Source of the DNA: a virus
DNA length: 64,000 nt
Virus record (IMG/VR): IMGVR_UViG_3300032291_002524
Location: 32,001 to 96,000 of that record
Reading direction: 5' to 3' (one strand)
The notes under the pieces were generated by a model. It did not search any database. It worked only from the letters and a program-made list of their open reading frames with translations, and was not told the DNA's origin. Below are positions 12,584-62,099 of the stretch, in pieces. The position numbers and the translations under genes were made by a program. Position 1 is the first letter of the stretch. Every line of letters begins with the position of its first letter.

Positions 12584-12826
12584 TTATAATTTTCTAAATT
12601 CATAATTTTTACTAATCTCATTTGTAAAAAATTTACCTTGGGATTCCGATAATCTGAATTGGGCATAAACTTTATGTGGAACATTTTTATATTCATATTG
12701 TAACCCGTTGTTAAAGGTTACTGTCATGATTTGTGTTGAAACATTGTAGGTACTTTCCTTAATGTTTGATGACTTAATGATATTATAAATCATATCGCCT
12801 TTGATTTCTTCTTTAATAATACTCAT
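12584..12826 (-). CDS. KTSC domain protein
   Basis: SSNI..STY.....VTFNNG..YEYKNVP......SESQGKFF. Confidence 0.85.
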   Translation of the reverse strand: MSIIKEEIKGDMIYNIIKSSNIKESTYNVSTQIMTVTFNNGLQYEYKNVPHKVYAQFRLSESQGKFFTNEISKNYEFRKL

Positions 12827-12856
12827 GTCAATAAATATAGAATCAATTTAAAATAA

Positions 12857-12884
12857 GAAACCCCTTCTTTTGAAAGGGGTTTTT
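12857..12884. terminator. intrinsic terminator
   Basis: GAAACCCCTTC-TTTT-GAAAGGGGTTTTT. Confidence 0.7.
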
Positions 12885-12889
12885 CATTG

Positions 12890-13348
12890 TTATTCGTATT
12901 TTTTAAGTTCGTCCCTAACCTTAATGGCTTCTTCGAATTCTTGTTTTTCAATATGAGATTTTAATTTTTCTTGTAATTCATTAATTAAACCTTCATTTTC
13001 TTCAAGGTCTTTAATTGTATCACGAAGTTTAATCGCCAATAGAAAATCTTCATTCTTAACCGCAATATCCAATTCTTTCTTTAAAGATTCGATTTTTGAT
13101 GTTGGTTTGTTTTCTTTTCTTTTATCACTACCATCATATGTTTTTATATAAGTTGTGATTTTATAAAAACCATCTTTTGATGTGTATGTTTGTTTGGTCC
13201 AATCCCCATTAGAATCTGAACCATTTTCGGTTTTTGTTTCACCTTTAAAAGTTAATGGTGAATCATAACCACCAATCATTTCATTTAATTCATCCATAAG
13301 TTCTTTTAAACTTTTACTGTTTCTTCCAAATAAATCGAACATATTCAT
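12890..13348 (-). CDS. tandem UVR-domain protein (possible ClpC adaptor)
   Basis: LDIAVKNEDFLLAIKLRDTI and IEKQEFEEAIKVRDELK motifs; divergent from clpC. Confidence 0.75.
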   Translation of the reverse strand: MNMFDLFGRNSKSLKELMDELNEMIGGYDSPLTFKGETKTENGSDSNGDWTKQTYTSKDGFYKITTYIKTYDGSDKRKENKPTSKIESLKKELDIAVKNEDFLLAIKLRDTIKDLEENEGLINELQEKLKSHIEKQEFEEAIKVRDELKKYE

Positions 13349-32482: not shown

Positions 32483-33502
32483 ATGGATTTAAACACCCTA
32501 AATAGATATTATGAAGATGGTTTACTTTACAAACAAGTACACCCAACACTTCCATTAACCATTTGGAACTATACAGAAAAAGTTCAATATAATGGTTTAT
32601 GGGATGAAATCACATTGTCCTGTCGTGGATTAGTAACCGATAATCTTGGTAATATTGTTGCAAGACCATTTAAAAAGTTCTTTAATCTTGAAGAGGGTAA
32701 ACACACACCGACACAAGATTTTGAAGTTTTCGAAAAAATGGACGGTTCAATGGGTATAATGTTCAAATACTCAGGTGAAACAATATTTGCAACTCGAGGG
32801 TCGTTCATTTCTGAACAATCAAAATGGATGTCCGATTTTGCAACCACCTATAATTATCAAGACATCATTGTCGATGGATTCACTTATTTATTTGAAATTA
32901 TATATGAAAACAATAGGATTGTTGTCGATTACGGTAACCAAGAAAGATTAGTATTATTAGGGATTATCAATACTGAAACAGGTGAAGAACTACCATATAA
33001 CGATATTTATTCTGATGGTTGGGATATTGTTCAAAGATATGACGGAATTAAAGATTATTCTAATTTAAAGAATCTTGTTGAAGCTAATCATGAAGGATTC
33101 GTCATTCGTTTTTCTAATGGGGACCGAATGAAAATTAAGGGTGAAGAATATATTCGTCTTCACAGAATTATGACTAATTTATCAACAACTTCAATATGGG
33201 ACGTATTGTCTAATGGTGGTAATATGGAAAATTTACTTATAAATGTTCCAGATGAGTTTTATAATAAAATTAAGGAATATGAAGATGAACTTAAGTTTAT
33301 GTTTAACTCATTGAGTAATGATTATTGGATTCATTTTAGAGACATTCAAAATTTGATGGAAAAAGTTGGTGGTGACCGTAAGAACTTTGCTCACGCAGCA
33401 AAACAATATCAGTACCCATCATTGTTGTTTGGTCTATTGGATGGTAAAGATGTTTCACCTATTATTTGGAAAATTATTAAACCTGAATTTAAAAAATTAT
33501 AA
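32483..33502 (+). CDS. RNA ligase 1 (T4 RnlA-like)
   Basis: CRGLV...ARPFKKFFN, EKMDGS, ATRGSF, FEII, EGFVI, KIKGEEY. Confidence 0.9.
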   Translation: MDLNTLNRYYEDGLLYKQVHPTLPLTIWNYTEKVQYNGLWDEITLSCRGLVTDNLGNIVARPFKKFFNLEEGKHTPTQDFEVFEKMDGSMGIMFKYSGETIFATRGSFISEQSKWMSDFATTYNYQDIIVDGFTYLFEIIYENNRIVVDYGNQERLVLLGIINTETGEELPYNDIYSDGWDIVQRYDGIKDYSNLKNLVEANHEGFVIRFSNGDRMKIKGEEYIRLHRIMTNLSTTSIWDVLSNGGNMENLLINVPDEFYNKIKEYEDELKFMFNSLSNDYWIHFRDIQNLMEKVGGDRKNFAHAAKQYQYPSLLFGLLDGKDVSPIIWKIIKPEFKKL

Positions 33503-39843: not shown

Positions 39844-40536
39844 ATGAAAATAACATTTATTTCCGACACACATAATAAACATAAACAACTAAATGGTCTA
39901 TTACCAGGTGGTGACATGATTATTCACGCGGGTGATATGTCAGGTATGGGATATAAACACGAAATTCAACAATTTTTAAAGTGGTATAATAATTTAGATA
40001 ATTACACTCATAAGGTGTTTATCGCTGGTAACCATGATTGGGGATTTCAAACCGAACCCAAAATGTGTAAAGAACAATTGGATTTTTACGATAAGGTAAC
40101 ATACATCCAAGATAACACAAAATTAATCGGTAATGAACATCAAACACCTGTTAAAGTTTATGGTTCTCCATGGCAACCTGAGTTTTATGATTGGGCATTT
40201 AACTTACCAAGAATGGGTTGGGAATTAGAACAAAAGTGGAATGATATTCCATTAGATACTGATATTTTAATTACACACGGACCTGCTTGGGGTCACTTAG
40301 ACACAGTTAAAAGTTTAGGTGTTCCTTTGGGTTGTGAATTATTATCAGAAAGAATTAAAGTTGTTAAACCTAAAATTCACGTTTGTGGTCATATCCATAC
40401 GGGATATGGTTATAAATTTGATGGTGATACCCACTATTTTAATGCTGCGGTATTAGATGAGCAATATAATTTAACTCAAAAACCATTCACCGTGGAATGG
40501 AATCCTGAAACTAATGAAATCGAATTTATAGATTAA
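39844..40536 (+). CDS. metallophosphoesterase
   Basis: SDTH, HAGD, AGNHD, THGP, CGHIH. Confidence 0.9.
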   Translation: MKITFISDTHNKHKQLNGLLPGGDMIIHAGDMSGMGYKHEIQQFLKWYNNLDNYTHKVFIAGNHDWGFQTEPKMCKEQLDFYDKVTYIQDNTKLIGNEHQTPVKVYGSPWQPEFYDWAFNLPRMGWELEQKWNDIPLDTDILITHGPAWGHLDTVKSLGVPLGCELLSERIKVVKPKIHVCGHIHTGYGYKFDGDTHYFNAAVLDEQYNLTQKPFTVEWNPETNEIEFID

Positions 40537-40537
40537 T

Positions 40538-41116
40538 ATGAAAAAAGAATATAATCAATGGTATTGGAAATTATATAGATGGTTTAAGTGGGACGCAAAA
40601 CATCTCCATAGAGATGTAATTATAGGGGTTAAAAACCTTTGGAAATGGTTTCCTATTATTTGGAAAGACCGTGATTGGGATGATTTTTATATTTTTGAAG
40701 CTCTGAAACATAAGATTAAAAATACTGCCGATTATACAGAAAAAAAACAAAGGTTTGTTGGTTGGGAAAAGGAAGTACGTTATATGAGAATATCCGTAAA
40801 GTTAATAGATAAGATTCAAGATGAATTTTATTCGGCAGAATACTGTAACTATTTTGATATGGATGTTTCTTTCACCCCATCTAAAAATCACAAGGATTCA
40901 TTTGAAGTCGATACTACCATAAATAATGATAATGTTGACAAGTACATTTCAATGTACCCCCACGCTTATCGTAGGTTAATGAATGATAAGAATTTAATAA
41001 ACTTTCAAAAAAGTTCTCGTTCAGTTGCTATGGGTATGGGTATTATACGTCATCGTAAAGCGAAAAAACTTCTTTTTAAGATATTAGAAGAAAGAATAGA
41101 AAATTGGTGGGATTAA
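40538..41116 (+). CDS. hypothetical phage protein
   Basis: WFPIIWKDRDWD...WWD pattern. Confidence 0.7.
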   Translation: MKKEYNQWYWKLYRWFKWDAKHLHRDVIIGVKNLWKWFPIIWKDRDWDDFYIFEALKHKIKNTADYTEKKQRFVGWEKEVRYMRISVKLIDKIQDEFYSAEYCNYFDMDVSFTPSKNHKDSFEVDTTINNDNVDKYISMYPHAYRRLMNDKNLINFQKSSRSVAMGMGIIRHRKAKKLLFKILEERIENWWD

Positions 41117-41136
41117 ATAATTATAATAAAAAGAAA

Positions 41137-41565
41137 ATGAAAATGAAAAAATTATACTTGGACGATGTTAGAATACCTCGTCATTCATATCCGGCAATGT
41201 CAAGAAGAATTGGTTCAGATTCTGCCATATATCAAAATGATGATTGGAATATTGTTAGGACATATGATGAATTTGTAAATTGGATTAGTGAAAATGGGTT
41301 ACCTGATATTGTGTCATTCGACCACGACTTGGCGGATGAACACATTCAATATTATTTTGATAATGGTGGTAACGCAAACCCACCTGACCCCCAAAAAACA
41401 ACTTTTGAGGAAAAAACGGGGTATGATTGTGCTAAATGGTTGGTAGATTATTGTGTTAAAACGCAACAAAAATTACCTGAATATTTGGTTCATTCTGCAA
41501 ATCCTGTTGGTGGATATAATATCTTGACGTATCTAAACAACGCAAAAAAACACACGAACATCTAA
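41137..41565 (+). CDS. cyclic-phosphate-processing receiver-domain protein
   Basis: KLYLDDVRIP, VSFDHDL, TGYDCAKWL, HSANPVG motifs. Confidence 0.8.
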   Translation: MKMKKLYLDDVRIPRHSYPAMSRRIGSDSAIYQNDDWNIVRTYDEFVNWISENGLPDIVSFDHDLADEHIQYYFDNGGNANPPDPQKTTFEEKTGYDCAKWLVDYCVKTQQKLPEYLVHSANPVGGYNILTYLNNAKKHTNI

Positions 41566-41840: not shown

Positions 41841-41871
41841 TTTGACACTTAAAGAAACTTTTGTATCTTTG
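41841..41871 (+). promoter_or_regulatory. Bacteroidota-type promoter upstream of leader 1
   Basis: TTTG (41841) ... TATCTTTG (41864-41871). Confidence 0.7.
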
Positions 41872-41902
41872 TATCATATTTAGAAAGAAAGGAAATAATA
41901 AA

Positions 41903-41998
41903 ATGACACTCGTGAAAAAACATATTGTGAAATCGTTTATTCAGTTATGTAATAACTGGTATATTCGCTTGTCAATAAGTTCGGGTGTTGTTGTATAA
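41903..41998 (+). CDS. putative attenuator leader peptide 1 (MTLVKKHIVKSFIQLCNNWYIRLSISSGVVV)
   Basis: 31-codon ORF whose 3' part AGTTCGGGT is complementary to the 5' arm of the following terminator. Confidence 0.7.
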   Translation: MTLVKKHIVKSFIQLCNNWYIRLSISSGVVV

Positions 41999-42020
41999 CA
42001 ACTTTTAGCCTTAAATAAGG

Positions 42021-42052
42021 AAACCCGAACTCACAAGGTTCGGGTTTTTTTT
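42021..42052 (+). terminator. conditional terminator of attenuator 1
   Basis: AAACCCGAAC-TCACAAG-GTTCGGGTTTTTTTT. Confidence 0.85.
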
Positions 42053-42064
42053 GTTCTTTGACAT
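42053..42064 (+). promoter_or_regulatory. boxA-like element
   Basis: GTTCTTTGACAT just before tRNA array 1. Confidence 0.65.
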
Positions 42065-42080
42065 GTTGGTAACCAAAAAT

Positions 42081-44897: not shown

Positions 44898-44969
44898 ACG
44901 GATGTAGCTCAGGGGCAGAGCACTTGTCTCCAAAACAAGGTGTCGGGATATCGTAATTCTCCATCCGTG
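44898..44969 (+). tRNA. tRNA-Trp(CCA), atypical T-loop
   Basis: CTTGT-CTCCAAA-ACAAG; G73; T-loop ATCGTAA. Confidence 0.8.
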
Positions 44970-46314: not shown

Positions 46315-46427
46315 AGTCAGGTGGCGGAATGGTAGACGCTTAAGGTCATAAGGTATAGTACATAGCTCCGTATTAAAGAGTCAGTTGCCGAATCTATACC
46401 ATACAGGTTCGAATCCTGTCTTGACTG
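46315..46427 (+). ncRNA. tRNA-Leu-like scaffold A (63-nt insert)
   Basis: AGTCAGGTGGCGGAATGGTAGACGC...ACAGGTTCGAATCCTGTCTTGACT. Confidence 0.75.
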
Positions 46428-46563
46428 CAGACTCTCATCTATAGCTGTGTAGAGAACTGATGAGTATTGTTGGAGGACACAGACCTCACGAACATTGGTT
46501 TAGGGCAAACGTAGGACCCCTATCACAAAGAGTACCAACCCATAGGGTAAAGCTCTTTAAAAT

Positions 46564-46641
46564 AGTCAGGTGGCGGAATGGATAGACGCAACCACATAAG
46601 TGGTCAAACCGGTACTACAGGTTCGAATCCTGTCCTGACTA
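46564..46641 (+). ncRNA. tRNA-Leu-like scaffold B (27-nt insert)
   Basis: same arms; insert hairpin ACCAC-ATAA-GTGGT. Confidence 0.75.
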
Positions 46642-46784
46642 CGCTCCTTTCTGGCGTTTTTAACAATAGGACGTGGTACAGATGCACCAGATGGATGTAC
46701 CAACCCAGCATCAGGGACTTGGCAAGTTTTCGGTAGCCAATCAGATGTAACCGATGACAGCTCGGAAAGTACGAGCAATATACC

Positions 46785-52939: not shown

Positions 52940-52994
52940 TTGACTTTTCGTAAAATTGACTATATTTATATCACAAACAAAATTACAACATTCA

Positions 52995-53063
52995 ATGAGA
53001 ACCATTTTCATATTCGGAACACCAGCAACAGAGGGTGATACTTCCAAAGTGGAGATGGGATAA
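52995..53063 (+). CDS. putative attenuator leader peptide 2 (MRTIFIFGTPATEGDTSKVEMG)
   Basis: 22-codon ORF whose 3' end TGGAGATGGG is complementary to the 5' arm of the next terminator. Confidence 0.7.
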   Translation: MRTIFIFGTPATEGDTSKVEMG

Positions 53064-53085
53064 TATTGTCTTTTAGACCTTAAAG

Positions 53086-53117
53086 AAACCCATCTCCAAA
53101 AAAGATGGGTTTTTTTT
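53086..53117 (+). terminator. conditional terminator of attenuator 2
   Basis: AAACCCATCT-CCAAAAA-AGATGGGTTTTTTTT. Confidence 0.85.
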
Positions 53118-53125
53118 GTTACCTA

Positions 53126-53202
53126 TTTGGCAAATCAAAAATAATGTTGTATCTTTGTATTGTTGTTGATGATAACAACATAACAAAAGAGTTCTTTGAC
53201 AT
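53126..53202 (+). promoter_or_regulatory. Bacteroidota-type promoter plus boxA
   Basis: TTTG (53126) N20 TATCTTTG (53150-53157); GTTCTTTGACAT (53191-53202). Confidence 0.65.
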
Positions 53203-53285
53203 ATTGGAAACCAAAAAAAAAATAAATTGGTTAGGATAACCAACTTTTTTAAGGGTTCGTAATATTTATCATTAAATGATATATT

Positions 53286-54191
53286 ATGTATAAATGTGGA
53301 TATTGCGAAAAAGATTTTAAGAATAAGGGAGGTTATGTAAGACATAATAAAACCTGTAAAATTGTTGATAATATTAGAGATGATGTTTACCGATTATATG
53401 TTGATGATTTGTGGAGTATAAAAGACATTGAAAAAAAATATAAGATTGGCCATAATACGGTCAATCAGATTTTAGGAGATTCAAAAAGAACACAATCTGA
53501 AGGTAATAAAACAGCTCGTAAGAAATATCCTGAAAATTTTAAACATACTGAAAAATCTAAACAAATTTTAAGGGAGAAACGATTAAAATTTATGAAAGAT
53601 AATCCCGACAAAACTGCTTGGAGATTAAAGAATATATCATACCCTGAAAAATTGTTTTATAACAAAGTTATTGAATTAGGGTGGGATAAGAAGTATTCAA
53701 TTAAACGAGAATACTCAGTATTTCCATATTTTATTGATTTTGCGTTTTTAAATGAAAAAGTTGCCGTTGAAATTGACGGTTCTCAACACCTTCTTCCTGA
53801 ACGAAAATTAAAAGACAGTGAAAAAGACGATTTATTAATTTCAAATGGATGGAATGTTATTAGGATATCTGAATATAAAATAAAAACCGAAATTGAAAAT
53901 GTCTTTGTTGAAATATTACAAGTTTTAAATAAAAATGTTAAACCTAAATTACATAGAGTTGGAATCGTATTACACCCAAAGAAAAACCAAAAGAAAAAAC
54001 GAGAAAAAAATGGATTGACAAAAGAACAACTAAATTCTATTAAATCTCAAAGAAAAATTAACAGACCTGATTATAAAACATTAATTAACGAAGTAAAAGA
54101 ATTTGGTTTTAATAAAACAGGTAAAAAATACGGGGTTAGTGATAACGCGATTAGAAAATGGGTTAAATTTTATGAAAAATATGAAAATTAA
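53286..54191 (+). CDS. DUF559/Vsr-like homing endonuclease with NUMOD3 and HTH motifs
   Basis: YFIDFAF...VAVEIDGSQH...KDDLL..NGWNVIRI; HTEKSKQIL. Confidence 0.8.
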   Translation: MYKCGYCEKDFKNKGGYVRHNKTCKIVDNIRDDVYRLYVDDLWSIKDIEKKYKIGHNTVNQILGDSKRTQSEGNKTARKKYPENFKHTEKSKQILREKRLKFMKDNPDKTAWRLKNISYPEKLFYNKVIELGWDKKYSIKREYSVFPYFIDFAFLNEKVAVEIDGSQHLLPERKLKDSEKDDLLISNGWNVIRISEYKIKTEIENVFVEILQVLNKNVKPKLHRVGIVLHPKKNQKKKREKNGLTKEQLNSIKSQRKINRPDYKTLINEVKEFGFNKTGKKYGVSDNAIRKWVKFYEKYEN

Positions 54192-54216: not shown

Positions 54217-54290
54217 GGTCCTGTGGAGAACGATAGCTATCTCATCACCCTTTCACGGTGGAGTATCGGGGGCGGCACCCGACAGGACTA
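54217..54290 (+). tRNA. tRNA-Glu(TTC), atypical T-loop
   Basis: TCACC-CTTTCAC-GGTGG; T-loop GGCGGCA. Confidence 0.8.
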
Positions 54291-54346
54291 CAAAAAAAAA
54301 AGATTTGGTAAATTAAAAAATTATCATTATCTTTGAATTATCAAAT

Positions 54347-54439
54347 AGTCAGGTGGCGGAATGGTAGACGCTTTTGGATTCTCTGTCCGATACCTTTGTT
54401 AAGGCAAAAAGCTTACAGGTTCGAATCCTGTCCTGACTA
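54347..54439 (+). ncRNA. tRNA-Leu-like scaffold D (43-nt insert)
   Basis: same conserved arms. Confidence 0.75.
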
Positions 54440-54513
54440 CAAAAATATTGGGTCCCGTACGGAATCGGGTGATGAGTGAAGGGTTGCCGACTCTGTTTCA
54501 CCGCTCAAAGCAT

Positions 54514-54605
54514 AGTCAGCTAGGAAGAAGGTCGGTTCGAGTCCGATGGAAGGTCATGGATGACGGGTAGCTCCCTGCAGAGAGGTTCGAATCCTCTCCT
54601 GACTA
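54514..54605 (+). ncRNA. tRNA-like scaffold E (D-arm replaced; second T-arm-like hairpin)
   Basis: AGTCAG/CTGACT-A acceptor; TCGG-TTCGAGT-CCGA and AGAGG-TTCGAAT-CCTCT. Confidence 0.6.
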
Positions 54606-54996
54606 CAAAGTGTTGTTCCCTTGATAAAGGAAATGTAAAGATTAGTGATATTACTTGAATTATGGAAAACATAATCGTACACTACAACACTGAGGGATTA
54701 TCATCCTCACTTTCTGTATCTCACGTGGAAAAACTTCTTACGGAAGCGGTAAAATGGAGATTAAGGATTCGCAATCCTCTCTGACGTAAGATGTGAAACC
54801 ACACTGATTATTAAAACTGCTTGTTAAAGTGATTTACGCTAGTTGGAAATAACTGGTATTGTCTAAACCTTAATCAGTCTCCCAAGGGTGAGCAAGTTGT
54901 AATACAATACAGAGTGAACAGTACGGCTGCGAATTGTGAGTGTTACAACTGAGTGCAGATGGAAACACCTAGTCATGTGTATAAACTAACTAACAT

Positions 54997-55177
54997 AGTC
55001 AGGTGGCGAAATGGTTAGACGCTACCAGCGAGAGGTACTCCACCCATGGTAAATAACCCTATTTAGTGATTCAAATAGGTGCTGGGTTATTGGACACACG
55101 ATTGAAACATACCATCAAATGTGTTAGACGTGACCGATGTGCGAGAGAGGTTACAGGTTCGAATCCTGTCCTGACTA
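54997..55177 (+). ncRNA. tRNA-Leu-like scaffold F (130-nt insert)
   Basis: same conserved arms. Confidence 0.75.
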
Positions 55178-55325
55178 CAAAATTCAGGATTAATTACCCT
55201 GAAATAATGGAAGGTTCGAAACTTCCGATTGATTATGGTGTAAAGGCGCACAGCGAACTGAGTAGGTCGGTGGACCGGAAGGAACGCGGGATTAAGGTTC
55301 GAATCCTTATTAATCAGCAAAATTA

Positions 55326-55400
55326 GCTTCTGTAGTTTAGCAGGTAAAATAACTGACTTGTAATCAGTAGTCCCCAGTTCAAATCTGGGTGGAAGCTCCA
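55326..55400 (+). tRNA. tRNA-Thr(TGT)
   Basis: ACTGA-CTTGTAA-TCAGT; CCA. Confidence 0.88.
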
Positions 55401-55407
55401 AACAAAT

Positions 55408-55482
55408 AGCGGGGTAGAGCAGAGGTAGCTTACAAGGCTCATAATCTTGTGGTCAGTGGTTCGAATCCACTCCCCGCCACCA
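55408..55482 (+). tRNA. tRNA-Met(CAT), initiator-like
   Basis: A1.C72 mismatch, GCGGGG/CCCCGC stem, CCA. Confidence 0.8.
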
Positions 55483-55837
55483 AATAATTCAATAGTGTAA
55501 ACAAGTAATAGGCCGGCACATGATGGTCTCTCTATATTAAGAGTAGAGTTAAACTCAGCCACAAAGAGGAACGGTAAGGCCTCCTTGAATTATTAACAAA
55601 TAACTCTATAACAGAATTAATTCTGTGAAATTGGGTAAATGAGGGTTAAATGGTTTGACAATCCTGAGACGCGTTTGGAATAAACCGTTAGAGCATTTAA
55701 CAAGTAGTTTACATTGTAGGTTCGATTCCTACTAGAGTTACCAAAAAGTTATGTGTTAATACATCTGACGGCAATTAGATATTAATATGTTAACTTCTAT
55801 CGTTCTTAATCTTTGCCGAGATAAAGGGTGGTAGTTA

Positions 55838-55910
55838 TTCCTGTAAGTGTGATGGCAAAACACCGGACACGGAGTCCGGAGTCGGAGGTTCGAGTCCCCC
55901 ACAGGAACCA
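55838..55910 (+). pseudogene. atypical tRNA-like element (loop CACGGAG, lacks U33)
   Basis: TTCCTGT/ACAGGAA-CCA; CCGGA/TCCGG arm; T-loop TTCGAGT. Confidence 0.5.
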
Positions 55911-55916
55911 AATATA

Positions 55917-56008
55917 TGCAGGTTAGAGTAGAGGACAAACTCACTGGGCTCATAACCCAGAGTCTCTGAAAGGGGACACGTCTGGTTCGAATCCAGCACC
56001 TGCTACCA
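55917..56008 (+). tRNA. tRNA-Met(CAT), initiator-like with long variable arm
   Basis: U1.U72 mismatch, CTGGG-CTCATAA-CCCAG (three G-C pairs), GTCTCT-GAA-AGGGGAC extra arm. Confidence 0.75.
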
Positions 56009-56069
56009 AAATGTCGTTCGTACTTGACTCCAATCGATTATTACACTTGTCATGTACGGGCAACTCCAC

Positions 56070-56145
56070 GCGAGTGTCGTATAGTGGCTTATTATGTTAG
56101 ACTTCCAATCTAAAGACGAGATTTCGATTATCTCCACTCGCTCCA
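56070..56145 (+). tRNA. tRNA-Gly(TCC)
   Basis: TTAGA-CTTCCAA-TCTAA; U73; CCA. Confidence 0.88.
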
Positions 56146-56420
56146 AAAGAACCTTTCCTTACATAGGACGGATTAGCACCGTTGAAAGACAATCTTTGGC
56201 TTCGTGGGAGTATCTACCCAATGAAGTATAAATGGCCCAAAGTGTGATGTGATGGACCCTGCTCTGTAGTGCACTTACACCAGGTGAACAGTAAACTATG
56301 TTCAGTCAAATCCACAACTACGGTGAGCGTAGAAGGAAAGTTTCTTTTTTAAGTGGACCTTTCAGTTGAAAGGGACCAATCCGAAGTCGTCCTACAAGAT
56401 TAGAAACGTCTTCGGCATTT

Positions 56421-56492
56421 GCGGGAGTAGCTCAGGGGTAGAGCGTCTGCTTGCCAAGCAGAAAGTCGAAGGTTCAAATCCTTTTTCCCGCT
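56421..56492 (+). tRNA. tRNA-Gly(GCC)
   Basis: TCTGC-TTGCCAA-GCAGA; U73. Confidence 0.88.
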
Positions 56493-56531
56493 CTGGGTTG
56501 GTTTTTGGACCAATTTATAATATATATAAAT

Positions 56532-57209
56532 ATGGGTAGAAAACCTTACAAATATCATTATCTGTATAAAACTACTAATATGTTAAATAACAAATATTAC
56601 ATTGGGATGCACTCTACTAATAATTTAGAAGATGGATACATAGGTAGTGGTGATAGAATTAGAAGAAGTTTGAAAAAATATGGTAAAGAAAATTTTAATT
56701 TTGAAATTATAAATTTTTTTGAAAATAGGGAATTGTTAAAACAAGCCGAAAAAGAAATAATAACTGATGAAATATTGAATGATGATTTATGTATGAACAT
56801 TTGTTATGGTGGTGGGGGTGGATATATAAGTCCTGATGGGGTTAAAAAGGGAAGAATAAAAACTGATAAAATTCTTAAGGAGAAATACGGTGAAAATTTT
56901 AGAAATGTAATTTTTAGGCAATACTACGATAATTTATCTGACGAAGAAAAAAAAGAATGGAAGAAAAAAATATCCAAATCTTTGAAAATTTATTATGAAA
57001 CACATTTGAATTCTTTTACAGGTAAAAAACATACCGAACTTACTAAAAAAAAGATAGGAGAAAAAAATTCTATTCATCAAAAAGGGGAAAAAAACTCTCA
57101 ATTTGGAACTTGTTGGATAACAAATGGTGAAATAAATTTAAAAATTAAAAAATGTGATGTATATCAATATCCTGAATGGAATAAAGGTAGAACATTAAAA
57201 AAGAAATAA
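56532..57209 (+). CDS. GIY-YIG (Seg-like) homing endonuclease
   Basis: YLYKTTNMLNNKYYIGMH...GYIGSG; NUMOD3 GKKHTELTKKKIG. Confidence 0.88.
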   Translation: MGRKPYKYHYLYKTTNMLNNKYYIGMHSTNNLEDGYIGSGDRIRRSLKKYGKENFNFEIINFFENRELLKQAEKEIITDEILNDDLCMNICYGGGGGYISPDGVKKGRIKTDKILKEKYGENFRNVIFRQYYDNLSDEEKKEWKKKISKSLKIYYETHLNSFTGKKHTELTKKKIGEKNSIHQKGEKNSQFGTCWITNGEINLKIKKCDVYQYPEWNKGRTLKKK

Positions 57210-57257
57210 GGGTCCGAGGGAGTCCCTGAAAGGAATAAATATCCTGTCCCTATCCAT

Positions 57258-57329
57258 GGTCTATTGGTGAAATAGTTATCATATCTGCCTGTCACGCAGA
57301 AGTCCTCGGAGCGTAACCGGGATAGACCG
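57258..57329 (+). tRNA. tRNA-Asp(GTC), atypical T-loop
   Basis: TCTGC-CTGTCAC-GCAGA; G73; T-loop AGCGTAA. Confidence 0.8.
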
Positions 57330-57553
57330 CAATGAGTAAGAGATACTCAGTAGTCTTTCATCCAAGACTCATTTAACAATGGATGGGGTTAAAAAACACC
57401 ACCCTAAGGTAATCGGTTCGGGATAAAACAGCATCAGGCCTGATGACTGCCGACGTATTGGGCTGACGTTTTCAAGGGGGTAAGACTCCGCAGGGTTACA
57501 AACAGGAAACCGGGAAAAATCTACTTATCCGTAATCTCAGGGTGGGGTAATAT

Positions 57554-57639
57554 AGTCAGGTGGCGGAATGGTAACGCAATGTTTCTAGACGAAGTTCAGC
57601 CGGGGGAGGCTGTTGCAGGTTCGAATCCTGTCCTGACTA
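57554..57639 (+). ncRNA. tRNA-Leu-like scaffold G (37-nt insert)
   Basis: same conserved arms. Confidence 0.72.
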
Positions 57640-57764
57640 CATTGATGGGTGGTTCTTCTCCCTGAACAGGTGGCTTGGTAATCAAGGAACTGAATGTTTT
57701 TAGAACATTTGCAGAAATACTGGTAGAACAGTGAAGATGACGGCTCGGAAAGTACGAGCAAAAT

Positions 57765-57927
57765 AGTCAGGTGGTGGAATTGGTATACACTACCGTTAAG
57801 GGCTTAGAGATATGATAAGATGTGGAAACGCACCCCTTCCTTGAACGGTTGTCCGATGAATGAATCGGGCTGTGTGATGTAAAGCGCACGGATGCAATCA
57901 ATACAGGTTCGAGTCCTGTCCTGACTA
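57765..57927 (+). ncRNA. tRNA-Leu-like scaffold H (112-nt insert)
   Basis: same arms with compensatory D-stem change GTG/CAC. Confidence 0.75.
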
Positions 57928-58007
57928 CATAAGAATAATTACTTAAATAAAAACGATAATGTTTAGATTCGGCTCGTTTTTTCTCCATTCTAAAGATATT
58001 TATAGAT

Positions 58008-58784
58008 ATGAAAAAATGTAAAAACATTGAATGTGAAAATAGTGTTTTGAAACATAGAGTATATTGTTCATTAACTTGTCGTAATATCTATGTTAATAGA
58101 TATATGAGGGATTATTCTAAAGCAGGTCAAACTATTAGTAATAAATCAATTGATTTATATATGAAGAATATAAAACATTGTCAAAACCCTAAATGTGGTA
58201 AAGAAATACCATATGAAAAAAGGAGAAATAATTATTGTGACAGTAGTTGTAGTACTTCACACATTAATATTAAAAGGCCACATACATGGGGTGATAAGAT
58301 AAAAAAGGGGGTGATTAATTATCACATAAAAAATGGTCATATTAAAACTAAAATATGTGGTTTTTGTGGTAATGAATTTTCAAATAGAAATAAATATTGT
58401 TCAATAGATTGTTATAAACACAAACGAAGAGAACATATTAATGAATATGAAAAATATAAATTAGACTGTAAATTCAAATTTAACGTGTATGACTATCCGC
58501 AAGAATTTGATTTGTCTTTAATTGATAAGTATGGTTGGTACAAAGCAATAAATAATGGCAATAATTTACGAGGTATTAGTAGGGACCATATGTTATCAAT
58601 CAATGAAGGGTACATGTTAGGTATTGACCCATATTTAATTTCTCATCCTGCAAATTGTAAATTAATGATTCATACTGACAATATTAGTAAGAATAAAAAA
58701 TCGTCAATAACAAAAGAAGAGTTAATTAAAAAAATAGATAGTTGGAACATTAAATATCCATTAATAAATGGGGTTGTCGTATAA
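58008..58784 (+). CDS. freestanding HNH-like homing endonuclease
   Basis: Cys-rich repeats, GISRDH...SHPANC; paralogue of 43583-44326. Confidence 0.7.
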   Translation: MKKCKNIECENSVLKHRVYCSLTCRNIYVNRYMRDYSKAGQTISNKSIDLYMKNIKHCQNPKCGKEIPYEKRRNNYCDSSCSTSHINIKRPHTWGDKIKKGVINYHIKNGHIKTKICGFCGNEFSNRNKYCSIDCYKHKRREHINEYEKYKLDCKFKFNVYDYPQEFDLSLIDKYGWYKAINNGNNLRGISRDHMLSINEGYMLGIDPYLISHPANCKLMIHTDNISKNKKSSITKEELIKKIDSWNIKYPLINGVVV

Positions 58785-58841
58785 AAGATATTACAATGGT
58801 TTTGCAAACCATAAAACACGGAGCGTTACCGTGCGACTCCA
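58770..58841 (+). tRNA. tRNA-Ala(TGC), atypical T-loop
   Basis: G3.U70, A73, ATGGT-TTTGCAA-ACCAT; T-loop AGCGTTA. Confidence 0.8.
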
Positions 58842-58855
58842 CAAAAAAAACATTT

Positions 58856-58933
58856 CGGGATGTTGGGGAGTCAGGTCACCCCGCTTCGTTTGGGACGAAG
58901 AAAATTTCGCAGGTTCGAATCCTGCCATCCCGA
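58856..58933 (+). tRNA. tRNA-Pro(TGG)
   Basis: C1-G72, CTTCG-TTTGGGA-CGAAG. Confidence 0.88.
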
Positions 58934-58964
58934 CAAATTAAAGTTTCCAATATATTTATATCAT

Positions 58965-60569
58965 ATGATACTAACTGAAGGTCGTAAGGAAGACGTTTAC
59001 AACAAATATAAAGATAAAATCGATACTGAAAGAAAATTAAGGTCATTGGTTGAACCAAAATCATTCTATGATATTTTGTTGGAAGAACCTTTTATGGAAC
59101 AAACCAACTACAAATATTTAGAACCTTTAGTAGCTCAACATTTTATTTGGAATGAAGTTTATCCAAGACAAGGTAATGAACTTGAAGAATTGGAACCAAA
59201 TAAGGCGTCCACAACAAGGGATGCTCTTATTAGTGATAGGACTTTTGTGGCTAATATTATCCCAAAATTAGAATTTTTTGAAAGAAACAAAGACAAATAT
59301 CCTAAAAAAGATTTTAAACAATATGTTGGTTGGGATTTTGAAAATGAATTCATAAATTTTACCGATAAATTAATGTCAGAAATCTCCAAAAGGAAGGAAA
59401 AAGAAATCGCCAAAAAGGATTCAATCAAACTTTACGAGGACAATGACATATTGGTTGTAAAACCTTTAACACATCAATCGTCTTGTTATTATGGTTCAGG
59501 TACCAAGTGGTGCACAACCATGGCAGGAACACCCAGTTATTTCGATAACTATACGAGTAAAGGTAATTTATATTACATTATCCTTAAAAAAATGACCCGT
59601 GATAATAAGTTTTCAAAAATTGCTTTATATCTTAAACCGGGAACTAATTTTGATAATGGTGATTATTACAATACCAAAGATGATTTATTAACAAAAAATG
59701 AAATTGAGTTATTTAAAAATTTTGTAATTCAAAGGGCTATTGATTCGATTAATGAGGACAATGATAAATCAAATAAGGGAAAATGGTTTTCACAAATTGA
59801 ACGTGGGTTTAAAGATACCAAATGGACCGATAGTATCACTTATAAAATTGAAATTGGAAAAGGGTTTTCAATTGAAGTTAAAATATCTGAATTATACGAT
59901 TATTCAGATTTAGGTGATATTGATGAAATTGATGAAGGTAATCATATTACATATTCTATGAATTTAAACCTAATATCCGACCAAGATTCAAGTTTAAATG
60001 ATTATATATTTGTTGATGGTATTATATTCGATTTAAATAACACAGACTATGCCGTTCAGTACCAAACGGAATCTCAGAACGGTAATTATAGTTTTATTGA
60101 TGGGTGGACCGATATAAAAAAATTTGAAAAGACTGGAAGTGATAATTTACAAAAAATAATTGAGAAAGTTATTAATATTTTTTCAATTAAAATATCTAAA
60201 TCTAATAATGTTCAAAATAAATATGAAGATTGGTTAGAAACCCAAAATGTTAAACCAAAATCTGAAACAGGATATGTTTCCCAAGGAGGAGGTAAATTAA
60301 CCAAAGAAATGATTAACTATTTAGACGCACTTGGTGACGGTGAAAAAGGGAATAGATTGGACTTCTTCCAAAAAACAGGTGTTATTACCACAACACCCGA
60401 GGGTAACTTTAATAAATATGGAAATAAAGTATCTCTTCAAGGTTATTATGGGGCATGGTTTTCAGGTTTAAATAAGGCAGGGATTATAACAACAAAACCA
60501 GGTGTTAAAGGATTTACAAAAGGTCCAAATTTTGAAAAGTTTAAAGAAAAAATTTTATCAAAAAAATAA
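58965..60569 (+). CDS. PLT...YG..TKWC-motif family protein
   Basis: KPLTHQSSCYYGSGTKWCTT; start MILTEG after TATTTAT. Confidence 0.75.
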   Translation: MILTEGRKEDVYNKYKDKIDTERKLRSLVEPKSFYDILLEEPFMEQTNYKYLEPLVAQHFIWNEVYPRQGNELEELEPNKASTTRDALISDRTFVANIIPKLEFFERNKDKYPKKDFKQYVGWDFENEFINFTDKLMSEISKRKEKEIAKKDSIKLYEDNDILVVKPLTHQSSCYYGSGTKWCTTMAGTPSYFDNYTSKGNLYYIILKKMTRDNKFSKIALYLKPGTNFDNGDYYNTKDDLLTKNEIELFKNFVIQRAIDSINEDNDKSNKGKWFSQIERGFKDTKWTDSITYKIEIGKGFSIEVKISELYDYSDLGDIDEIDEGNHITYSMNLNLISDQDSSLNDYIFVDGIIFDLNNTDYAVQYQTESQNGNYSFIDGWTDIKKFEKTGSDNLQKIIEKVINIFSIKISKSNNVQNKYEDWLETQNVKPKSETGYVSQGGGKLTKEMINYLDALGDGEKGNRLDFFQKTGVITTTPEGNFNKYGNKVSLQGYYGAWFSGLNKAGIITTKPGVKGFTKGPNFEKFKEKILSKK

Positions 60570-60646
60570 CTTAAAAATTATTGCTGGTATTGTCAATAAA
60601 TAAACTTTTTGATATATTTATTGTTGAAAAAAAAATCACAATTCTT

Positions 60647-60823
60647 ATGGACCCAAACATCACAAACATCGAAAATGTAGAGGAAATGTCTGCTCAAAAC
60701 CAAATTGGGCATTTCATTGATAATTTCTGTAATGACATACAGGACAATTATCATATATTTGAAAATATATGTTGTGAGGATGACTACGACAATATTCAGG
60801 GGGATTTAGTTCTTTTTATATAA
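60647..60823 (+). CDS. small acidic hypothetical protein
   Basis: 58 aa from ATG 60647. Confidence 0.45.
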   Translation: MDPNITNIENVEEMSAQNQIGHFIDNFCNDIQDNYHIFENICCEDDYDNIQGDLVLFI

Positions 60824-60867
60824 TAAATTTGTTTTTTCATTTTTTTTGAATTAACTTTGTTTTGTTT

Positions 60868-61272
60868 ATGACTTACAAACATCAATTCAAGAGATTTTTA
60901 CAGAAGATAGCGGTAGACCTAACTAGAAAGTTTAATCCTTCTATTATACAAGGTACCCAACACGGTCGTGAGTGTTTATCAATATGTCAAAAATTAATCA
61001 CCAATCCCGAAACTGATTTATATGTATCACCATTATCAGCTAAGAAATATATTAAAAACGACGAACATAAGATATTTATAATTCTTCAAGGAAAAACGGT
61101 TCAAATTATAAACCATGTTTATAGTTATTTAATTTTGACGGATGATAGAACATGGGAAAAAATAATGGAATTCTTCAATGAAGAACAAGAACGTAGATGT
61201 TTGAAATTAGAATCGGAAATAAACGTAAACATTAAACAATCATTAAAAAACATAAGTAATAATCTTAAATAA
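60868..61272 (+). CDS. hypothetical phage protein
   Basis: ORF after TAACTTTG; IINHVYSY motif. Confidence 0.7.
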   Translation: MTYKHQFKRFLQKIAVDLTRKFNPSIIQGTQHGRECLSICQKLITNPETDLYVSPLSAKKYIKNDEHKIFIILQGKTVQIINHVYSYLILTDDRTWEKIMEFFNEEQERRCLKLESEINVNIKQSLKNISNNLK

Positions 61273-61273
61273 A

Positions 61274-61561
61274 ATGGGAACAAATTCATTTAAATCGACA
61301 TACCGTTTTGGTGGTACAATATTTGTAATTTCGGTATTAACAATGTCAATAATTTTTGGAACATTGTTTAGGTCTTGTGGTGTTTCTGATAATGTTGTTA
61401 ATGTAAATTTACCTGAAAGTGTCGACGGAAAAAGTGATACCGTTTTTATCGAAAAAGAAGTTGAAAGGGTAATTAGAGATACTGTCAGAATACCTTACAC
61501 ATCAAAAATAAAACAATCGAATGATAATGGTTCATTTTTAAAAAAAGACACCATAAAATAA
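61274..61561 (+). CDS. single-TM membrane protein
   Basis: N-terminal TM helix, DTV repeats. Confidence 0.65.
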   Translation: MGTNSFKSTYRFGGTIFVISVLTMSIIFGTLFRSCGVSDNVVNVNLPESVDGKSDTVFIEKEVERVIRDTVRIPYTSKIKQSNDNGSFLKKDTIK

Positions 61562-61567
61562 AGTTCA

Positions 61568-61641
61568 GGACCCTTAGCTCAGTTGGTCAGAGCAACTGAC
61601 TCATAATCAGTAGGTCGATGGTTCAAGCCCATCAGGGTCCA
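61568..61641 (+). tRNA. tRNA(CAT), probably Ile2 (lysidine)
   Basis: GGACCCT acceptor; ACTGA-CTCATAA-TCAGT. Confidence 0.75.
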
Positions 61642-61647
61642 CTAAAT

Positions 61648-61721
61648 GCTCACGTAGCTCAGTTGGTAAGAGCAGATGTCTTATACACATCAGGTCACAG
61701 GTTCAATTCCTGTCGTGAGTA
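61648..61721 (+). tRNA. tRNA-Ile(TAT)
   Basis: GATGT-CTTATAC-ACATC. Confidence 0.85.
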
Positions 61722-61736
61722 CTAAATATTATTGTT

Positions 61737-61913
61737 ATGTATTGTATTGTGAAATTAGTTAAAACTATTGATGGTAAAGAATTACCGGTTATTATGTTAG
61801 ATTCATCAGATGAGGTTTGGGAATTTGAAAATATGAGTGACGCTTCTGAAATATCTGAGATATTAACAAAAAATTCAGATTCTGGGTATACATATACCGC
61901 AAAAAAGATTTAA
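61737..61913 (+). CDS. small hypothetical protein (58 aa, below the track cutoff)
   Basis: MYCIVKLVK...SDEVWEFE...NSDSGYTYTAKKI; TATT-rich motif upstream. Confidence 0.6.
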   Translation: MYCIVKLVKTIDGKELPVIMLDSSDEVWEFENMSDASEISEILTKNSDSGYTYTAKKI

Positions 61914-61931
61914 ATTTGTAATTATATACAT

Positions 61932-62003
61932 GGCCCTGTAGGTAAATGGATATACCAACTCTCTTCTAAAGAGTAATTCGTGGTTCGATTCCACGTAGGG
62001 CTA
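61932..62003 (+). tRNA. tRNA-Arg(TCT)
   Basis: ACTCT-CTTCTAA-AGAGT. Confidence 0.88.
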
Positions 62004-62011
62004 CAAAATAC

Positions 62012-62099
62012 GGAAGGTTGTCAGAGCGGTAATGAAGCGGTTTGCTAAACCGTACATCTATAAGTAGATGCGATGGTTCGAATCCATCACCTTCCGCCA
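62012..62099 (+). tRNA. tRNA-Ser(GCT)
   Basis: GCGGT-TTGCTAA-ACCGT, long variable arm, G73, CCA. Confidence 0.9.

Follow-up and report, generated by a model that had tools for sequence, protein, structure and literature searches.

The question raised by this locus is what a 22-codon open reading frame, followed at once by an intrinsic terminator, does between an aminotransferase gene and an array of phage tRNA genes. The window, by which we mean the whole stretch of 64,000 nucleotides that was analysed, is part of a 106-kb virus contig from IMG/VR with an estimated completeness of 34% (CheckV). It contains about 30 tRNA genes in two arrays (ARAGORN, Rfam). A BLAST search returned no close relative among deposited phages, the matches being restricted to tRNAs and one homing endonuclease. 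We read the source as a large, uncultured phage of Bacteroidota, whereby the host phylum is inferred from the identity of a boxA element described below. Our answer, to which we assign a probability of about 0.78 in the absence of expression data, is that the element represents a trp/his/ilv-type transcription attenuator, mediated by the ribosome through a leader peptide, ahead of a phage tRNA array. The observations that carry this interpretation are the geometry of the sequence, its conservation and covariation, the correspondence between leader codons and downstream tRNAs, and the identity of the boxA motif.

The upstream neighbor of the leader is a class I/II aminotransferase gene. On the downstream side, the terminator is followed by a promoter-like box (53150-53157), a small hairpin (53162-53179), boxA (53191-53207), an endonuclease gene and finally array 2. 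From the leader to array 2, all of these elements, like the sister module before array 1, are read on the plus strand. Leader ORF 2 (52995-53063) begins with an ATG at 52995, comprises 22 codons and ends with a TAA stop codon at 53061-53063; its product is MRTIFIFGTPATEGDTSKVEMG, and the untranslated leader ahead of it is A-rich. The proposed sensing codons 8-16 (53016-53042; GGA ACA CCA GCA ACA GAG GGT GAT ACT) specify Gly, Thr, Pro, Ala, Glu and Asp only, a restriction already pointed out in the original prediction and evident from reading the codons. A run of nine residues drawn from this set is absent from the 12,624 residues of the window's long ORFs. No Shine-Dalgarno sequence is found at leader ORF 2. 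Its absence is usual in Bacteroidota, but provides no positive evidence of translation.

The 3' end of the ORF takes part in two competing structures. Region 2 (53050-53059; TGGAGATGGG), the 5' strand of the antiterminator, lies inside codons 19-22 and is over 10 bp the exact reverse complement of region 3 (53089-53098; CCCATCTCCA). The latter is common to both structures and makes up most of the 5' arm of the intrinsic terminator (53086-53117), which consists of the stem AAACCCATCT / AGATGGGTTT and a subsequent T run (fold z-score of -4.3). The ORF, the 10-bp pairing with the terminator arm and the terminator itself are thus present on the sequence as originally described. When the leader is shuffled, 4 of 20,000 sequences show a Watson-Crick run of at least 10. 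The fold energy of the antiterminator segment is -19.1 kcal/mol, compared to -14.9 kcal/mol for the terminator. A further segment, region 1 (53002-53011), is paired with region 2 when the entire leader is folded and may give rise to a 1:2 hairpin. The hairpin appears in the minimum free energy structure of 52995-53120 as well as in a fold of the ORF alone (-20.3 kcal/mol), but is not favoured over the 2:3 pairing when the partial transcript is folded.

The influence of a translating ribosome was represented by a mask that covers the A-site codon together with 15 nt on its 5' side and 11 nt on its 3' side, and the transcript was folded as far as region 3. For an A-site at any of codons 2-15, region 2 is free and the full 10-bp antiterminator is formed; with the A-site anywhere from codon 17 to the stop codon, the 2:3 pairing is reduced to zero. 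We note that all folds are equilibrium folds and ignore co-transcriptional kinetics. The locus fulfils the following sequence criteria of an attenuator of this kind: an ORF with a start codon lies between the inferred promoter and the regulated genes, a terminator lies between the ORF and these genes, an antiterminator that excludes the terminator has its 5' strand near the end of the ORF, stalling would free this strand and arrival at the stop codon would bury it under the ribosome (mask folds), and the regulatory codons match the products of the downstream genes, which are here tRNAs and not biosynthetic enzymes. Among the models of Rfam, only tRNA passes its gathering threshold. The best of the leader models is Thr_leader, which matches over its full length yet scores 26.5 bits against a gathering threshold of 55, followed by Phe_leader (18-20 bits against 55). 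Rfam holds no family for a tRNA-array attenuator.

A sister module (41903-42069) precedes array 1. It consists of a leader ORF (41903-41998) encoding MTLVKKHIVKSFIQLCNNWYIRLSISSGVVV, an antiterminator that pairs AGTTCGGGT with ACCCGAACT, a terminator (42017-42051) and a boxA (42053-42069). Both attenuators are provided with the linker CTTTTAG(A)CCTTAAA..GAAACCC (41999-42022 and 53064-53088), from which the original prediction had concluded that the two elements are homologous. The linker is indeed common to both, but homology does not follow from it: the linker is private to the two attenuators of this genome, relatives carry other linkers with an identity of only 59%, and a scan of IMG/VR for the linker motif of the window yields zero matches. 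Not being conserved, the linker is useless as a family marker, and its occurrence in both attenuators suggests an exchange between copies instead of being evidence of deep homology. Just 5' of array 1, the window also encodes a T4 Rnl1-type RNA ligase (32483-33502), a metallophosphoesterase (39844-40536) and a cREC_REC (cyclic-phosphate-processing) protein (41104-41565), a trio beside the tRNA arrays that looks like a tRNA-repair kit.

Array 2 (54217-62099) consists of tRNA genes interspersed with ORFs and tRNA-like paralogs. ARAGORN and Rfam report Thr-TGT (55326), three Met-type genes with anticodon CAT (55408, 55917 and 61568), Gly-TCC (56070), Gly-GCC (56421), Asp-GTC (57258), Pro-TGG (58856), Ile-TAT (61648), Arg-TCT (61932) and Ser-GCT (62012). 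Rfam alone recognizes Ala-TGC (58770-58841), whose anticodon was read from a fold, and, in array 1, Trp-CCA (44898-44969). For Glu-TTC (54217-54289) there is merely a candidate, a cloverleaf from our own folding that both programs miss. Hence, seven of the array-2 tRNAs listed in the original prediction are called by ARAGORN and Rfam and Ala-TGC is backed by Rfam together with its fold, while Glu-TTC does not go beyond a folded candidate. Counting Ala-TGC and candidate Glu-TTC, each of the six amino acids of codons 8-16 has a tRNA in array 2. The AGA and ATA codons of leader 2 correspond, as predicted, to Arg-TCT and Ile-TAT of the same array, which come from the ARAGORN and Rfam calls. The further claim that the two leaders together cover all 20 amino acids, divided as the arrays are, does not hold exactly, since the sensing segment of leader 2 also holds an ATT and two TTC codons that are served by array 1 instead.

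An ARAGORN call of Glu(ctc) at 54347 was not counted as Glu, as it is one of the class-II-like paralogs starting with AGTCAGG. These tRNA-like paralogs (46315-46430, 46564-46645, 54347-54442 and 57554-57640) have a common start, AGTCAGGTGGCGGAATGG, corresponding to the beginning of the acceptor and D-arm, and a common end, CAGGTTCGAATCCTGTCCTGACT, corresponding to the end of the T-arm and acceptor, with unrelated middle parts; ARAGORN labels them Glu(ctc), Ser(aga) or '???'. Non-canonical cloverleaves that are missed by both programs are found not only for Glu-TTC of the window but also for Ala-TGC in two related loci (L004, 8120-8190; L029, 8528-8598). There the Ala tRNA, located between Asp and Pro, had seemed to be missing as a result of failed detection. 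Because such cloverleaves escape the standard tools, phage tRNA counts are underestimated here, and apparent cases of a codon without a tRNA are in part detection failures.

To place leader 2 among its relatives, 44 related loci were gathered via the aminotransferase gene. A homologue of leader 2 is located directly behind this gene in L004 (= L005, L033, L042), L006, L029 and L013, and the same four loci also have boxA and a promoter-like box between terminator and boxA. Comparing the window with L004, L006 and L029, the nucleotide identity amounts to 90-96% for the leader ORF, as opposed to 76-79% for the aminotransferase gene and 59% for the linker. Conservation of the leader ORF above the neighboring gene and the linker points to a constraint on the codons themselves. 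The stem of L013 differs in sequence (GGGTGGG x CCCACCC and CCCACC x GGTGGG), and both pairings are kept. The wider family, comprising leaders of the types MKNLHII... and MKT.HIIL..., has the same type of terminator. In an alignment of 17 family members, 81.6% of the cells of the antiterminator are paired and three pairs are changed on both sides; the covariation score is 0.140 compared to 0.085 for shuffled alignments (none of 500 reaches 0.140), and slid controls pair at no more than 62%. For the terminator, 96.5% of the cells of the 17 members are paired.

Within the clade, differences between leaders coincide with differences between arrays. AGA at codon 2 of leader 2 occurs in the window alone, and so does Arg-TCT in array 2. 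In L013, Pro is missing both from the codons of the leader and from the tRNAs of the 2.6 kb that follow Ala. If the stem of leader 1 is disregarded, TCG codons are restricted to the window and L029, the two genomes whose array 1 includes Ser-TGA. We regard these three concordances as anecdotes; a formal 2x2 table of gains and losses within the family results in p = 0.55, with only 11 informative cells, and is too small. Among the homologues of leader 1, His and Gln trade positions while one of each is kept.

Several other RNA genes were encountered in the related loci. L006 (2685-2756) and L293 harbor, beside their arrays, tRNAs with anticodon CTA that ARAGORN labels 'Pyl' (amber-reading) and that may be suppressor tRNAs. 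An Rfam 'freshwater-1' RNA (73.8 bits, gathering threshold 72) is located inside array 2 of L006 (8874-8936), between two Gly tRNAs. L004 encodes a tmRNA on the minus strand (12685-13070), 3' of array 2.

The promoter-like region of leader 2 (52940-52969) consists of TTGAC, a spacer of about 17 nt and TATATTTA, the latter forming a -7-like box (52962-52969); promoter function is inferred. The same arrangement is found 5' of the homologous leaders in all four relatives. Boxes of the form TAnnTTT(G/A) also stand before the leaders of many other families, and for this reason we reject the label 'late-type' that the TATATTTA box had been given. A second promoter-like site, P2 (53126-53157), with TTTG at 53126-53129 and TATCTTTG at 53150-53157, is located between terminator and boxA. 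A box of the P2 type occupies the equivalent place in the four relatives, and a 14-mer of P2 recurs unchanged in the promoter-like box of leader 1 (41860-41873). The original prediction had itself cautioned that promoters lie downstream of the terminator. Such TAnnTTTG boxes are present at about 53150, 54195 and 54328, and the one between terminator and boxA is conserved. A hairpin, GTTGTT-GATGAT-AACAAC (53162-53179), lies between P2 and boxA and is boxB-like with respect to its position only; a similar hairpin is found in L004 and L006.

The boxA (53191-53207) has the sequence GTTCTTTGACATATTGG. Exact copies of this 17-mer are found in over 120 genomes, almost all of them from Bacteroidota. 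In six of six loci checked it is located in the 16S-23S spacer, after the genes for tRNA-Ile and tRNA-Ala and 44-198 nt before the 23S gene. In the phage, boxA precedes both tRNA arrays, the copy at 42053-42069 having one variable base. Because the exact 17-mer occupies the position of the spacer boxA in rrn operons, we read it as a putative loan from the rRNA operons of Bacteroidota and place the host in this phylum. That the element functions as boxA, binds NusB/S10 and renders elongation resistant to termination is inferred by analogy with the rrn operons of E. coli and the nut sites of phage lambda.

Between boxA and the first tRNA, the window contains a gene for a DUF559-type homing endonuclease (53286-54191; Pfam PF04480), for which the match in a Leptolyngbya phage is annotated as a homing endonuclease. 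The gene is absent from this place in L004, L006, L029 and L013, where tRNA-Glu follows about 20-30 nt after boxA. With P2 and the endonuclease gene before the first tRNA, attenuator 2 can gate only transcription that is initiated upstream, and given the location of P2 between terminator and boxA, it can only add to a basal transcription of array 2. Taking into account the endonuclease gene and the two further promoter-like boxes as well, control of array 2 by the attenuator may be minor in this particular phage.

The same arrangement admits an unlikely alternative, namely that the terminator mainly ends transcription of the aminotransferase gene and acts as an insulator, that array 2 is actually transcribed from P2, and that the attenuator is an inherited relic which contributes little, its ancestral form still working in relatives with boxA directly after the T run. 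Such a relic is compatible with the P2-like TAnnTTTG box and the hairpin between terminator and boxA (the box being shared by the window and the four relatives), with the distance of 0-1 nt between terminator and boxA in other sub-families, and with the endonuclease gene and additional boxes before the first tRNA. It is at odds with the leader ORF being the best conserved part of the region, and with the AGA codon of the window's leader that fits a private Arg-TCT gene: a relic is expected to decay and not to follow the array. The high conservation of the leader argues that the attenuator still matters despite P2.

Whether leaders follow their arrays in general can be asked across the phage contigs of IMG/VR. 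The search pattern was the combination of a T run and boxA, as boxA alone is too unspecific. At least 97 distinct modules of terminator and boxA were found. Of the 97 modules listed, 87 contain a short ORF that starts with ATG, spans 15-50 codons and stops 12-60 nt ahead of the terminator arm; these ORFs belong to 32 families. The codon/tRNA comparison was based on 27 family representatives drawn from the modules listed, each with at least four downstream tRNAs. For these representatives, the proportion of leader residues for which the own array provides a tRNA is 0.657, compared to 0.488 +/- 0.019 for permuted arrays (z = 8.7). At the level of codons the match is 0.559 versus 0.388 (z = 8.9), and the fraction of array amino acids that are present in the leader is 0.951 versus 0.747 (z = 7.6). 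In all three measures, the observed value lies above every one of the 20,000 permutations. The expectation that leader composition tracks array content, on which the original prediction had staked its case, is therefore met in the 27 families, and the three differences within the clade agree with it.

The correspondence extends to synonymous codons and to the position within the leader. Codons readable by array anticodons are used in 385 of 468 cases, compared to 344.5 expected from the long ORFs of the same loci (z = 5.7), whereas exact Watson-Crick complements of the array anticodons are not enriched among the leader codons (z = -0.5). Matching residues account for 69% of the sensing segment, as defined by the ribosome footprint, versus 54% of the tail (p = 1.7e-4). 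In the 32 leader families, the 3' end of a leader can pair with the terminator arm belonging to it in an unbroken Watson-Crick stretch whose maximum length averages 6.6; permuted arms give 4.4 +/- 0.2 (0 of 20,000 reach 6.6) and the 5' part of the ORF gives 3.3. As an example, the leader MKTIFNISPSILRPSIRRS, with ATA, TCA, TTA and AGA codons, precedes an array of Ser-TGA, Arg-TCT, Pro, Ile-TAT, Met and Leu-TAA. Another leader, ending in NLYNIDLYLDMDDGFVLLR, has CTC, TTA, CTA, TTG and CGA codons and is followed by Tyr, Leu-AAG, Leu-CAA, Met, Leu-TAG, Asp, Leu-TAA and Arg-TCG. In the leader of locus L181, four Leu isoacceptors are represented by one codon each. We note that many arrays of the survey are cut by contig ends, that tRNA detection misses non-canonical genes, and that the leader families are not strictly independent phylogenetically. 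Leaders of otherwise different families (L158, L218, L231, L088, L192 and others) start with MKNL or MKT (AAA AAT TTA...), which may mean either shared ancestry or a requirement of initiation in Bacteroidota.

The preference for readable synonymous codons bears on a second alternative, that of a general sensor of amino-acid starvation, equivalent to a classic multivalent attenuator, whose match to the array is a side effect of how the tRNAs are grouped. In the trp, his and ilv attenuators, the ribosome stalls in the same way upon a shortage of the amino acid or of the tRNA, and a stalled ribosome in the phage leader would be just as blind to the difference. Sensing of amino acids does not, however, require that codons readable by the array be preferred over their synonyms, as with ATA and Ile-TAT, AGA and Arg-TCT or the four Leu codons of L181, and the controlled genes supply tRNAs instead of amino acids; we consider this explanation improbable. 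That the ORF is not translated at all, the element being an RNA-only switch bound by a protein or RNA with a coincidental or compositional codon match, is very hard to sustain: direct evidence of translation is lacking and the best Rfam match, Thr_leader, is sub-threshold, but an ATG ORF of 15-50 codons is kept throughout most of the modules listed, the permutation tests on amino acids and codons reach z-scores of about 9 with a match that depends on the footprint position, and leader 1 swaps its His and Gln positions yet keeps both.

The interpretation as a leader-peptide attenuator is supported by a trp-type geometry that is present and covaries, whereas regulation itself is inferred: there are no transcript, end-mapping or ribosome data, and translation of the leader, stalling of the ribosome, read-through and boxA function are deduced. 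According to the proposed mechanism, the TATATTTA-type box near 52962 would give rise to a transcript from which the leader of 22 codons would be translated. A fast ribosome that arrives at the stop codon would cover region 2, such that the terminator (53086-53117) forms and transcription ends. A ribosome stalled within codons 2-15, among which GGA ACA CCA GCA ACA GAG GGT GAT as well as AGA and ATA are served by array-2 tRNAs, would leave region 2 free to pair with region 3 (53089-53098) while the terminator still lacks its 3' arm, allowing RNA polymerase to read through. The polymerase would then cross the rrn-type boxA (53191-53207) and probably become resistant to termination over the endonuclease gene and the structured array. 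Slow reading of the leader codons thus probably leads to more transcription of array-2 tRNAs, and the net effect would be a negative feedback on the supply of charged tRNA for exactly those species that the array encodes.

A more far-reaching and tentative possibility is that the leaders serve the phage as surveillance of the decoding capacity of its host, with each array switched on only if the corresponding tRNAs of the host are absent, cleaved or uncharged. Conceivable triggers are anticodon nucleases of the host or a loss of host tRNAs induced by the phage itself. The switch would act as a counter-defence together with the nearby RNA-repair genes for the Rnl1-type ligase, the metallophosphoesterase and the cyclic-phosphate-processing protein, and one short ORF would read out many tRNA species together.

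If the attenuator operates as proposed, it represents a new regulatory logic in which the decoding speed at given codons determines the transcription of exactly those tRNAs that read them, and it offers a testable reason for the tRNA arrays of large phages and for their grouping. Leaders that sample 6 to 19 amino acids in 20-35 codons are also possible reporters of tRNA availability for Bacteroidota. With boxA function inferred, the pairing of attenuator and boxA would mean that the phage borrows the rRNA antitermination of its host for operons of structured RNA. A full-text literature search for leader-peptide attenuation or demand-sensing transcriptional control of tRNA genes, in phages or elsewhere, retrieved no description. 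In bacteria and phages, tRNA genes are usually regarded as controlled at the level of promoters (growth-rate or stringent control).

Among known systems, large sets of phage tRNAs are familiar from T4, T5 and the mycobacteriophages, where the arrays are viewed as supplies for codon usage or against host defence. The window resembles them in the size of its tRNA set and also has the Rnl1-type ligase and cyclic-phosphate-processing genes nearby. With regard to the boxA, the closest counterpart is rrn antitermination, in which boxA is bound by NusB/S10 in the leader and in the 16S-23S spacer; the nut sites of lambda are comparable. The phage motif GTTCTTTGACATATTGG is identical to the spacer element before the 23S gene of Bacteroidota and likewise precedes long, structured RNA genes. 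In contrast to rrn operons and nut sites, it serves tRNA arrays and is coupled to an upstream attenuator, with Nus binding being inferred by analogy.

With regard to the attenuator, the element shares with the enterobacterial systems (ilvGMEDA for Ile, Leu and Val; thrL for Thr and Ile; trpL, hisL, leuL and pheL) a short ORF rich in the sensed codons whose 3' end overlaps the antiterminator, the competition of the latter with an intrinsic terminator, and, as proposed, the decision by ribosome position. It differs from these attenuators in that tRNA genes are controlled, that boxA follows the terminator, that it belongs to a phage of Bacteroidota, and that there is no sequence homology. Furthermore, enterobacterial leaders repeat codons for one to three amino acids, whereas the phage leaders sample 6-19 amino acids, mostly once or twice each. 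A component of decoding is tied to charged tRNA through the choice between terminator and antiterminator in pheST of E. coli, with its leader pheM, and in the T-boxes of Firmicutes. The T-boxes bind uncharged tRNA directly and without translation, whereas the phage element is proposed to depend on translation. The pheM leader controls a synthetase and senses a single amino acid, whereas the product of the phage element is tRNA itself and many species would be sensed at the same time.
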